Shown here: piece after piece, positions 8,401-14,193 of the stretch
Layout of the letters: every line of letters starts with the position of its first letter
Position numbering within the stretch: position 1 is the first letter of the stretch
Assembly: GCA_031431875.1 (NCBI GenBank)
Contig: JANPEF010000028.1
Location: forward strand, 8,793 to 72,792
Reading direction: 5' to 3'
DNA length: 64,000 bases
DNA from: Candidatus Eiseniibacteriota bacterium
GTDB taxonomy: Bacteria > Eisenbacteria > RBG-16-71-46 > DASYSL01
The notes under the pieces: model-generated
Seen by the model: the letters and a program-made list of their open reading frames with translations, nothing else
Database searches by the model: none
Told to the model about the DNA's origin: nothing
Translations under genes and position numbers: made by a program

Positions 8401-8429
8401 TTGACCGGGGCGGATCGGGGGCGTAGCGT
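8401..8429 (+). promoter_or_regulatory. Sigma70-type promoter upstream of the small secreted-protein gene
   Basis: TTGACC-17nt-TAGCGT preceded by an AT-rich tract (TGTAAATAAG). Confidence 0.6.
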
Positions 8430-8549
8430 TTTGCACGCGCTGGACCAAGGTCCCCTGCCTCAGGCAACTCCTTGTGTCGCCTGATTTCGGCCCACGCGCG
8501 CCGGAACCAGTTCCAGAGAGGTCTCGCGTAGAGGGAGTACTCAGCGCAC

Positions 8550-8867
8550 ATGGCCGCCAAGGCAACTCGCACATACATCCTGGTCCTTCTTCTCGTGCTC
8601 GGCGTCGTTGCGACGACGGCGACTGTCGGTGTATCGACGGTCTTCGCGTCGGCCGGGGCGGGTGGCGCGACAAACGGAGATCCGGATCGACCCAACGATT
8701 CGACGAAGCCCTCGGTTCAGCAGTCGGTGCCGGGTTCAACGATCATGCCGAGCAGCACCGGCATCGTGGGCGGCCCGGTTGCATCCGCCGGCGTCGAACG
8801 TGCAGAGAAGGGTTGGACCTGGGCGAAGTGGTACGTCGCTACCTTGCTCGGGCGGTTCGGTCGCTAA
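8550..8867 (+). CDS. Small secreted protein / candidate signalling pro-peptide (105 aa)
   Basis: GAGGGAG RBS; basic N-terminus and hydrophobic signal ending VFA; GATNGDPDRP core; low-complexity linker; C-terminal WTWAKWYVATLLGRFGR. Confidence 0.7.
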   Translation: MAAKATRTYILVLLLVLGVVATTATVGVSTVFASAGAGGATNGDPDRPNDSTKPSVQQSVPGSTIMPSSTGIVGGPVASAGVERAEKGWTWAKWYVATLLGRFGR

Positions 8868-8969: not shown

Positions 8970-12059
<3,090 letters not shown>

Positions 12060-12092: not shown

Positions 12093-12121
12093 GGCTTGAG
12101 ACTTTGCTCTCAAGCCTTTTT
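12093..12121 (+). terminator. Inverted repeat plus T-run after the activator gene (intrinsic terminator and/or activator binding site)
   Basis: GGCTTGAGA-ctttgc-TCTCAAGCC-TTTTT. Confidence 0.6.
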
Positions 12122-12314
12122 AGTGTTTGGATCCTGTTGTGGGACAAGAACTTGCGATGAGCCCGCCCTCCCTGGCTATGAAGTCTCCTTCCAGCGGATC
12201 GCTTCCCGACGGAAACGGCGGCTCTCCTCGCGATCCGGTCAAGAACCTGTAAACCATTGCCGGTCATGTGGTTGTCGGAGTGGAACCATGTGCGCGCGCA
12301 GTGTCACCTCCGGG

Positions 12315-12330
12315 TGGCACGGGCAATGCA
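12315..12330 (+). promoter_or_regulatory. Sigma54 (-24/-12) promoter 1
   Basis: TGGCACGGGCAATGCA: GG-N10-GC spacing, intergenic, 255 nt after a GAFTGA activator. Confidence 0.85.
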
Positions 12331-12340
12331 CTACATCCCG

Positions 12341-12910
12341 CGGCGGAGGGGGGGACCTCCAGAGAGAAACAAGGCAGAGCATCAGGGCACGGACGCAACA
12401 CAGCAGAGACATTCCGGGGCTGCCCGTCTCGCGCAACCAGCCAGCGCATCTTTCGGTCGAGACGGCTCCCCCCGGGATGGTCCGGCAGGAACAGGCAGCA
12501 GCAGGGATGTTGCAGACGGACAACGAAGACGAAGCACCTGGGTTTCTGGGCTTGTCGGGGTTTGCTGGAGAGTGGTCGAGGGTATGAACCCGGTCGAAAG
12601 CGACGATCGAGTCACTCTTCGAGCACCCGACTAGCCCGGAGTTTGCAGCACCAAGGATTGAACCCCGCGACAGCCGCGGAGGCTTCTCGCGAAAAGGCAC
12701 CAGGGACAAGCTCCTGCGGGACGCAGGGAGCTCCCCGAGAGGAGTCGCGGGGTTTCGAAAACGGGCGCAGGTCCGGTTCGGCACTGGCCAGCACTGGGGG
12801 ATGTACAGGTCGTTGCCGTTCATGAAACCGGCGCCCGCTCTGTAAGAAGCAAAAGGAACAGTGAGACGGCCGGGGGAGCCCGCTTCGAGGGGCTCCCCCG
12901 GTCTTTGTCT
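12341..12910 (+). ncRNA. Candidate sigma54-dependent large structured non-coding RNA (~570 nt)
   Basis: Bounded by a -24/-12 promoter and a terminator; four nested stem domains separated by A/G-rich linkers; no credible long ORF. Confidence 0.65.
12868..12910 (+). terminator. Intrinsic terminator of the candidate ncRNA
   Basis: GGCCGGGGGAGCCC-gcttcgag-GGGCTCCCCCGGTC-TTTGTCT (14-bp stem with one G-U). Confidence 0.8.
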
Positions 12911-13115
12911 GTGGCATCCCGGCCGCACGCCCGACGCTGTTGCGGCACCGGTGCCCCGGCTGGCAGCCTCCGACGGTGCGGCAGGTGGGACCCGGCAGCA
13001 CGACGATCGAGCCGACTCGGCCCCGCCTTTCAGCCACGCGAACCTCCATGACCTCATGCACTTCGCCGGTTCTCCCTGCTTCAACTCCCGGGCCTTGGCC
13101 GCTCCGCGGCCGACA

Positions 13116-13131
13116 TGGCACGCCGATTGCG
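13116..13131 (+). promoter_or_regulatory. Sigma54 (-24/-12) promoter 2
   Basis: TGGCACGCCGATTGCG matches TGGCACG-N4-TTGC; ends ~50 nt before ATG 13183. Confidence 0.85.
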
Positions 13132-13182: not shown

Positions 13183-14040
13183 ATGTCGACCCGCACGTTC
13201 CCGACCCGCATCCGGATCCTTCCCGCGCTCGGCTTCCTCACGGTCCTTGCGCTGTTTGCCGTCGGTTGCGATTCCGACGATGGCCCGGTGGTCGTGGTCG
13301 ACTCCATTCCGCCCGCGGCGCCGCAGGCGGTGAGCACCGTGACCGGTGATGGTCGCGTGACCATCTCCTGGGTGCCGAACACCGATGGGGACCTCGCCGG
13401 CTACCGCGTCTACCGCGGCGTCGACGGATACCTCGGCGAGATGTTTCCGCTGGCGACGACCCCGTCGACCACCTTCGTCGACGCCGCCGTGCTCAACGGA
13501 ACGACCTACTCCTACGCGGTCGCGGCCTACGACGTGGCCGGCAACGAGAGCGCACTGTCGGTCGAGAACACCCAGGATACGCCGCGTCCGGCGGGGGCGA
13601 ACCTGGTGCTCTACGACATTTCGTTCGAGCCGGGCGAGCTGGCGGGCTACGACTTCTCGGCGGGCGTGTTGCGCCTTGCCGGCGACGCGTCGACCGATCT
13701 CTACTACGAGGTCGCCGGCGGCACGCGGCTGATGGTGGCGCGCGACCTGTCGACCGACGTTCAGGACGCGGGCTATCGCGGGCTCGACGACCTCGACTGG
13801 GCACCGGACGAGGGCTGGTCGCCGACGGGGACGGTGGAACTCATCGTCGGCCACGCCTACTACGCATGGACCCGGACCGGGAACTTCGCGAAGTTCCGCG
13901 TCACCTCGATCACCGACAGCCAGGTGCGGATCGATTGGGCTTACCAACTCCAGGCCGACAACCCTGAGTTGATCCGGACGCCGCGGCGGGATCCGCTGCT
14001 GGCCGCGGTGGGCACGACGGCCGGCGCGACGGCGCGGTAG
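13183..14040 (+). CDS. Lipoprotein with fibronectin type III domain
   Basis: Lipobox LFAVG-C; FN3 signature VTISW..DLAGYRVYR..TYSYAVAAYDVAGNES. Confidence 0.8.
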   Translation: MSTRTFPTRIRILPALGFLTVLALFAVGCDSDDGPVVVVDSIPPAAPQAVSTVTGDGRVTISWVPNTDGDLAGYRVYRGVDGYLGEMFPLATTPSTTFVDAAVLNGTTYSYAVAAYDVAGNESALSVENTQDTPRPAGANLVLYDISFEPGELAGYDFSAGVLRLAGDASTDLYYEVAGGTRLMVARDLSTDVQDAGYRGLDDLDWAPDEGWSPTGTVELIVGHAYYAWTRTGNFAKFRVTSITDSQVRIDWAYQLQADNPELIRTPRRDPLLAAVGTTAGATAR

Positions 14041-14193
14041 GCTTCCCGGCCGTTCGCGGGAGAAACCGCGGAGTCGCGGGGTAAGAATCGTCGGACGGTC
14101 CCGAGGGGCGGTTGACCCTCGGGGCGACATCCCCCAGAGTGAAAGGCGGCCCGCACCCGTGGGGGTGCGGGCCGTTCCCTGTCCGGAGACCCG

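Follow-up and report, generated by a model that had tools for sequence, protein, structure and literature searches.

The closest described system in regulatory logic is LuxO-Qrr of Vibrio, in which small RNAs under a sigma-54 activator pair with the activator mRNA in negative feedback and need Hfq, according to the accessible part of PMC3262071. The locus described here lies in a 64,000-nt stretch of DNA that was analysed whole (the window), and it shares with Qrr a promoter beside the activator gene and complementarity to the activator mRNA but not the dependence on Hfq, which was found in 0/61 genomes by a search whose control was positive in 5/14. The activator combines TPR and GAF domains where LuxO has a phosphorylated receiver, and the RNA is larger and modular and has no likeness to Qrr in sequence or in Rfam. 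In the CbrB-CrcZ system of Pseudomonas, CrcZ is likewise a long RNA encoded beside a sigma-54 activator. CrcZ antagonises Hfq and Crc, as far as the portion of the literature at hand goes, and no Hfq was found in the 61 genomes here.

To our knowledge, the agr system has neither sigma-54 nor a TPR receptor. Its RNAIII in Staphylococcus aureus nevertheless resembles the RNA here in being large, multi-hairpin and Hfq-free, with several open loops that contact two widely separated sites in a single mRNA, and its locus is tied to an exported peptide as this one is, peptide signalling here being a candidate; RNAIII places C-rich loops on G-rich ribosome-binding sites, whereas the predicted polarity here is reversed (PMC2837412, excerpts). 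In Myxococcus, the sections drawn on describe an RNA gene, pxr, that lies ~260 nt past the sigma-54 activator PxrR (Nla19), with a central first stem-loop and a host without hfq, much as here; unlike the RNA here, Pxr is 108 nt long and depends on a two-component pair for its expression; those sections mention no feedback target for it, and the RNA here has no Rfam match to Pxr (PMC5568312, PMC5684412, PMC10217877). RepG of Helicobacter pylori, also an Hfq-free host, reads a homopolymer run in the tlpB leader, but that run is a variable G-run, whereas here a G-run would read fixed C-runs in the operon of its own activator (PMC8322730, partial text).

In the RRNPP systems of Bacillota, a gene for a small secreted protein adjoins that of a TPR regulator, as here. 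Two of five RRNPP characteristics, TPR repeats and adjacent genes, are clearly present; the receptor, with N-terminal TPRs fused to a sigma-54 ATPase, has ~1029 aa as against 250-500 aa, the conserved motif is central rather than C-terminal, and the small protein has 105 aa (~90-125 aa in most relatives) where the RRNPP propeptide has 10-100 aa (PMC10075063, as far as its accessible part describes them). Since a PorV-family gene is present, the host apparently has an outer membrane, unlike RRNPP hosts. The RNA resembles LuxO-Qrr in logic, Pxr in layout and RNAIII or RepG in Hfq-free loop pairing, and is a member of none of these; no description was found in Rfam 15 or in the open full-text literature, a scope outside which most subscription papers and supplements fall. 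We read it as a trans-acting, Hfq-independent base-pairing regulator that exerts negative feedback on its own activator, with a probability of roughly 0.65.

The RNA gene, its fold and its distribution

The initial annotation had proposed a ~570-nt multi-domain structured RNA, outside Rfam, between a sigma-54 promoter and a terminator. Its parts are as follows.

12315..12329, + strand: sigma-54 -24/-12 promoter of the RNA (sequence; phylum-wide pattern)
12341..12908, + strand: non-coding RNA gene, ends placed from promoter and terminator
12345..12360, + strand: 5' hairpin with G-rich loop, predicted seed (loop unpaired with p at least 0.99; seed and target co-change)
12410..12479, + strand: domain 1, genus-specific (conservation, fold)
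12544..12641, + strand: domain 2, long stem capped by two hairpins, fold conserved (z -5.65; covariation)
12661..12754, + strand: domain 3 (z -2.99; covariation)
12762..12837, + strand: domain 4, tip near-invariant around 12792-12809 (cross-family comparison)
12868..12910, + strand: intrinsic terminator, T-run after 12903 (z -4.94)

All arms that had been given coordinates start exactly where annotated (12345, 12410/12470, 12424/12458, 12661/12744 and 12762/12831), and the domain-2 arms are located at 12546/12633. The predicted fold contains the terminator and all four domains, domain 2 with both of its capping hairpins. Its energy on the + strand is -262.7 kcal/mol (z -4.0), with 0/100 shuffles as good, and the RNA without its terminator retains a z of -3.3. 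Taken alone, domain 2, the terminator and domain 3 are significant by the scores listed above, whereas significance is lacking for domain 1 (z -1.60), domain 4 (z -1.54) and the 5' hairpin (z -1.32), which therefore rest on conservation. The argument that G-U pairs reveal the orientation proved weak, as the minus strand reaches a similar score (z -3.75); the + orientation itself stands, because with both strands folding similarly the strand is set by the sigma-54 box (12315-12329) and by the T-run that follows 12903. The -24/-12 geometry presumably places the RNA start near 12341. Linkers are A/G-rich as described, with 84 A and 53 G among 181 unpaired bases. A cmscan-type search of the entire window gave 0 Rfam matches at the gathering score, and with Rfam 15 and E up to 10 there were three sub-threshold chance matches. 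That the element is RNase P RNA, tmRNA or 6S RNA in disguise was rejected: RNase P and tmRNA score above cut-off elsewhere in the genome, and 6S lies elsewhere below cut-off.

Searched as an exact pattern, the promoter with its 5' hairpin is present in 163/206 genomes of the uncultured phylum Candidatus Eisenbacteria, in single copy except for one genome with two, and the reversed-pattern control gave 0 matches in the 206 genomes. In the families that the pattern missed, the same activator is followed by a promoter or hairpin of variant form. The spacer between promoter and hairpin is 13-15 nt in 131/132 loci. A DNA search matched 19/41 genomes, some weakly, and in a named genome collection, among the 80 matches listed, 56 carry the label Candidatus Eisenbacteria, 17 are unlabelled and 7 have other names. 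An unpublished genome (G007) is counted in the DNA search, in the phylum-wide pattern tallies, in those of Hfq, csrA and the htrA leaders, in the enhancer count and in the upper value of the lengths given below, and no conclusion depends on it alone. An uncultured phylum thereby gains a near-universal regulatory RNA with a specific predicted target.

Covariation had been proposed as a check of the fold. In 34 sequences of the largest sister family (f3; f1 is the own family, and other numbers denote further families of the phylum), 20/51 pairs change on both sides, which 0/500 shuffles reach, in a structure derived from the same alignment; 95.5% of the cells of that alignment pair, as against 31-45% in slid controls. 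Seven sequences of the own family gave 12/65 pairs that change on both sides. Three indels (1, 4 and 1 nt) separate the region from its counterpart in a 92%-identical relative, and substitutions fall 10/7/8 across the three codon positions, so that the codon-pattern conservation expected of an mRNA was not found; among 11 homologues there is no common reading frame with a ribosome-binding site. In four metatranscriptome studies, contigs of relatives match stretches within 12365-12863, one of them with 1 difference in 206 nt, and the contigs of the four runs gave no cover at 12129-12290 or 12939-13100. This cover is compatible with transcription without proving it, since contigs give no ends, strand or level.

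Conservation, covariation and the lack of a kept frame bear out the annotation of a non-coding multi-domain RNA with a sigma-54 promoter and a terminator, outside Rfam, and we regard it as almost certainly a real folded non-coding RNA. The length of ~570 nt holds for this genome, yet it lies at the long end of the family range: the last conserved domain ends at ~130 nt in f18, 190 nt in f7, 340 nt in f3 and 500 nt in the own family. Conservation of domain 1 is confined to the genus. In f15, another conserved hairpin ~200 nt past the RNA 5' end replaces domain 4.

Predicted pairing with the activator operon mRNA

Upstream of the RNA lies an operon for a small protein and the activator, and downstream a probable lipoprotein gene.

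8401..8429, + strand: putative sigma-70-like promoter of the operon, TTGACC-17 nt-TAGCGT (sequence; layout common to 36 f1/f3 loci)
8448..8455, + strand: predicted target site 1, AGGTCCCC, near the operon mRNA 5' end, 8-nt complement of RNA 12351-12358
8550..8867, + strand: 105-aa small protein with hydrophobic N-terminus, G-D-P-D and a Trp-containing C-terminal segment (comparison)
8970..12059, + strand: TPR-GAF-AAA+-Fis HTH sigma-54 activator, ~1029 aa, GTG start (Pfam; start by comparison)
8983..8989, + strand: predicted target site 2, a C7 stretch at codons 5-7 of the activator that complements RNA 12348-12354 (G7)
12093..12121, + strand: hairpin resembling a terminator, downstream of the activator; it overlaps an enhancer-like AAR-N4-YTT at 12112-12121 (sequence, motif count)
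13116..13130, + strand: second sigma-54 promoter (sequence; in 43/47 sister-family loci)
13183..14040, + strand: fibronectin-III-domain probable lipoprotein, the usual downstream neighbour (ORF, Pfam, neighbourhood comparison)

The activator stop and the RNA hairpin are 226-366 nt apart in all 65 parsed loci, and AAR-N4-YTT occurs in 97/131 upstream regions (17 in shuffled sequence), usually 220-260 nt upstream of the hairpin. Of 81 loci, 65 were kept for the starts and 76 for the leaders, the others having no parsed start or small ORF, and the loci of four f4 genomes with a weak best activator match (E 1e-90 to 1e-107) were left out of inspection.

GGTCCCC, the complement of the hairpin loop and 3' arm, is present in 41/76 operon leaders versus 0.3% of coding windows. 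The leader site lies ~100 nt ahead of the small-protein start and, in 28/36 loci, 16-19 nt past the -10 box. Complements of at least 7 nt to the hairpin of the same locus were found in the leaders of 5/5 f1, 32/33 f3 and 6/7 f13 loci, with controls of 11/1280 coding windows and 4/65 intergenic regions (6%), and at the activator start in 5/5 f1, 28/30 f3 and 3/3 f2 loci, with a control of 2/645. For f1 and f3 combined this amounts to 37/38 leaders and 33/35 activator starts, counts that overstate the evidence because the genomes are related. Sites of at least 7 nt are rare in f18 (1/12 leaders, 1/12 starts) and in f7 (3/9 leaders, 0/5 starts). Codons 5-7 read ATC CCC CCC in most f1/f3 activators and ACC CCC CCG here; CCC is used for Pro6 in 34/35 and for Pro7 in 28/35 activators, compared with 37% CCC overall, while two other four-fold columns equal the fixation of Pro6 and two other Pro columns are 86-87% CCC.

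The strongest evidence for the predicted pairing is the co-change of loop and site in four lineages, compared with one G-U pair allowed per duplex. The f11 seed forms 13 bp with its own activator start where the usual seed would form 8-9, one f10 seed 11 bp with its own leader instead of 6, the f8 seed 11 bp instead of 9 in two loci, and, at the ribosome-binding site, the seed of f15 forms 8 bp instead of 4-5 in 5/5 loci. In f5, which retains the usual seed, the sites reach 11 and 10 bp. At the third f8 leader the usual seed pairs as well (12 bp versus 11 for its own), and f12, the f9 leaders, one f10 locus and two of the three f4 loci lack a convincing site. The co-changed lineages form separate clades on a quick activator tree with an unresolved backbone. 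Natural compensatory changes across deep lineages are a rare kind of support for a small RNA known from genomes only. In this genome the duplexes are short (8 and 7 bp), target 2 is open (opening cost 0.3 kcal/mol) and opening the whole seed costs 8.3 kcal/mol; as Hfq was not found, pairing would start loop-first, in the manner that the accessible part of PMC2837412 describes for RNAIII. We take the 5' hairpin for a probable base-pairing seed directed against the upstream operon, and on these sequence comparisons we consider it likely that the RNA pairs with the mRNA of its own operon.

Judging from the layout, the TPR-GAF activator would act from an enhancer ~230 nt upstream to open the sigma-54 promoter, and comparison among the families shows that the product is a non-coding RNA of separate folded modules. 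Its open G-rich 5' loop would then nucleate on C-rich sites of the small-protein/activator mRNA, as the conserved, co-changing complementarity suggests, one site lying ~10 nt from the mRNA 5' end and the other at the activator start, within codons 5-7 here and over the ribosome-binding region in other families. Repression is expected because pairing at this second site would fall on the first codons or the ribosome-binding site; it would block initiation and lower the activator, closing a negative feedback loop. The remaining domains probably hold further seeds or protein-binding sites for other outputs. Such seeding would be of reversed polarity, a G-rich loop on C-runs, and would proceed without Hfq. 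That pairing at the leader site frees the ribosome-binding site of the small protein was not supported, the leader site pairing there in 18/45 folds and with a probability of 0.01 here. In f3, CCGGGT stands ~30 nt before the activator start in 18/28 loci versus 1% background and matches the domain-3 loop, ACCCGG, which may be a second seed in that family; loop and CCGGGT co-occur with p 0.063, and this genome has neither motif.

The exported small protein is the likely input of the activator. G[DE]xD occurs in 74/76 picked small ORFs, a few picks being wrong ORFs, and G43 and D46 are invariant among 41 aligned sequences. By a simple score the N-terminus is basic and then hydrophobic. The protein has no Pfam or NCBIfam match, and the predicted complex of the TPR domain with small-protein residues 32-72 scored 0.27, the mark being 0.32. 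A protein atlas held unnamed clusters only, all under 0.9, and viral contigs no relative of the activator. More speculatively, the locus could be a peptide-sensing, quorum-type circuit in an outer-membrane host, in which an exported G-[D/E]-x-D protein acts on a TPR sigma-54 activator that drives an RNAIII-sized modular RNA, the 5' loop tuning the circuit and the invariant 3' tip binding a conserved partner; we put this forward tentatively. If the exported protein were the signal, TPR peptide sensing would reach beyond Bacillota and into sigma-54 control. Some of the small proteins carry the acidic motif twice, like the tandem pheromone copies of some propeptides. This genome also has two paralogous TPR sigma-54 activators (on C35 and C149), each preceded by a gene for a small exported protein that contains GDPD, and a sigma-54 box lies 234 nt downstream of the C35 paralogue, followed by a long untranslated-looking stretch.

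Alternative readings

The conserved sites could instead be a DNA operator, one protein binding the motif behind both promoters while RNA domains 2-4 form a scaffold for a protein or ligand. This would account for the fixed distance of the leader site from the -10 box (28/36 loci) and for a domain-4 tip that is near-invariant across nine families, with a variable stem and including families without the codon 5-7 site, and for which no target was found. It sits poorly with an inverted-repeat spacer that varies between 5 and 7 nt, which fits a loop better than a dimer site, with a second site that falls within coding sequence or at the ribosome-binding site, with a leader site that shifts position in f8, f10 and f13, and with matches that include G-U pairs, and we judge it unlikely.

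A sponge of the CsrB/RsmY type, which would titrate CsrA through GGA loops, seems to us rather improbable. This genome has two csrA genes, csrA occurs in 179/206 genomes, both conserved loops contain GGA, and the RNA holds 18 GGA and 7 ANGGA versus 3.4 expected (p 0.055). The domain-4 tip also resembles what we take to be the CsrA selection consensus. However, f13 has the 5' hairpin (8/8) and the domain-4 tip yet csrA in 0/8 genomes, so that CsrA is disfavoured as the domain-4 partner, and a sponge does not predict the co-change with the target. The many conserved loop GGA of Csr/Rsm RNAs were not found either, since the ANGGA copies lie in genus-specific linkers and are mostly paired, with just 2/7 mostly unpaired. 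One of the csrA genes adjoins fliW, a protein antagonist. In the accessible part of a survey, few active CsrA proteins are predicted in this phylum by the survey's own assay (PMC13443453). One csrA precedes a short protein that is FlgM-like by eye and has no NCBIfam match; the other stands after fliW, beside the RNase P RNA gene.

Very little favours a cis-acting leader, an attenuator or riboswitch of the downstream lipoprotein operon, beyond the terminator after the folded region and the arrangement in f13/f14, where the 5' modules lead an AAA-ATPase gene. The lipoprotein gene needs no RNA leader because it has its own sigma-54 promoter, here and in 43/47 sister-family loci; the downstream neighbour also changes in some lineages, and the fold contains no antiterminator. 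In f13/f14 the AAA-ATPase gene (~480-490 aa, with a winged-helix domain) lies between the 5' modules, which form its leader, and the 3' domain with the terminator, the two parts being 1.7-2.0 kb apart in 6/7 loci and also split in three metagenome loci, and the 3' tip is retained. The RNA is thus modular, with domains spanning ~130 to ~500 nt, and can be split by a protein gene. In f3, an element of the form GTGT/GC...ACACCTGAG...CACAC recurs between the RNA and the second sigma-54 promoter and may serve the lipoprotein operon as an enhancer or protein site. That the region is simply an mRNA for one of its open frames of 125-185 aa (e.g. 12268-12825) can be dismissed, as these frames have no Pfam match and the comparison with homologues gave frame-breaking indels, even substitutions and no common frame with a ribosome-binding site.

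Other candidate targets

None of the following searches yielded a target beyond the activator operon. A promoter-anchored search for the complement of domain 4 gave scattered matches in 10/206 genomes, and 28 orthologue leaders of htrA, compared by eye, showed no complement in common. An 11-nt complement of the domain-4 tip at 14127 was rejected and treated as chance: it falls in the spacer of a sigma-70-like promoter (14112-14144) and, in a set of 17 loci of which several end before that point, is found in this genome and its closest relative only. The gene after this promoter belongs to the PorV/PorQ family. For the 5' seed, a phylum-wide pattern count did not separate targets from ordinary ribosome-binding sites. 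In this genome, GGAGG followed by TCC occurs at 27 genes versus 19.4 expected with a crude gene caller. By a crude score, 15 of these 27 look exported, compared with 198/638 others (p 0.011, post hoc), and they are possible envelope targets of the RNA.
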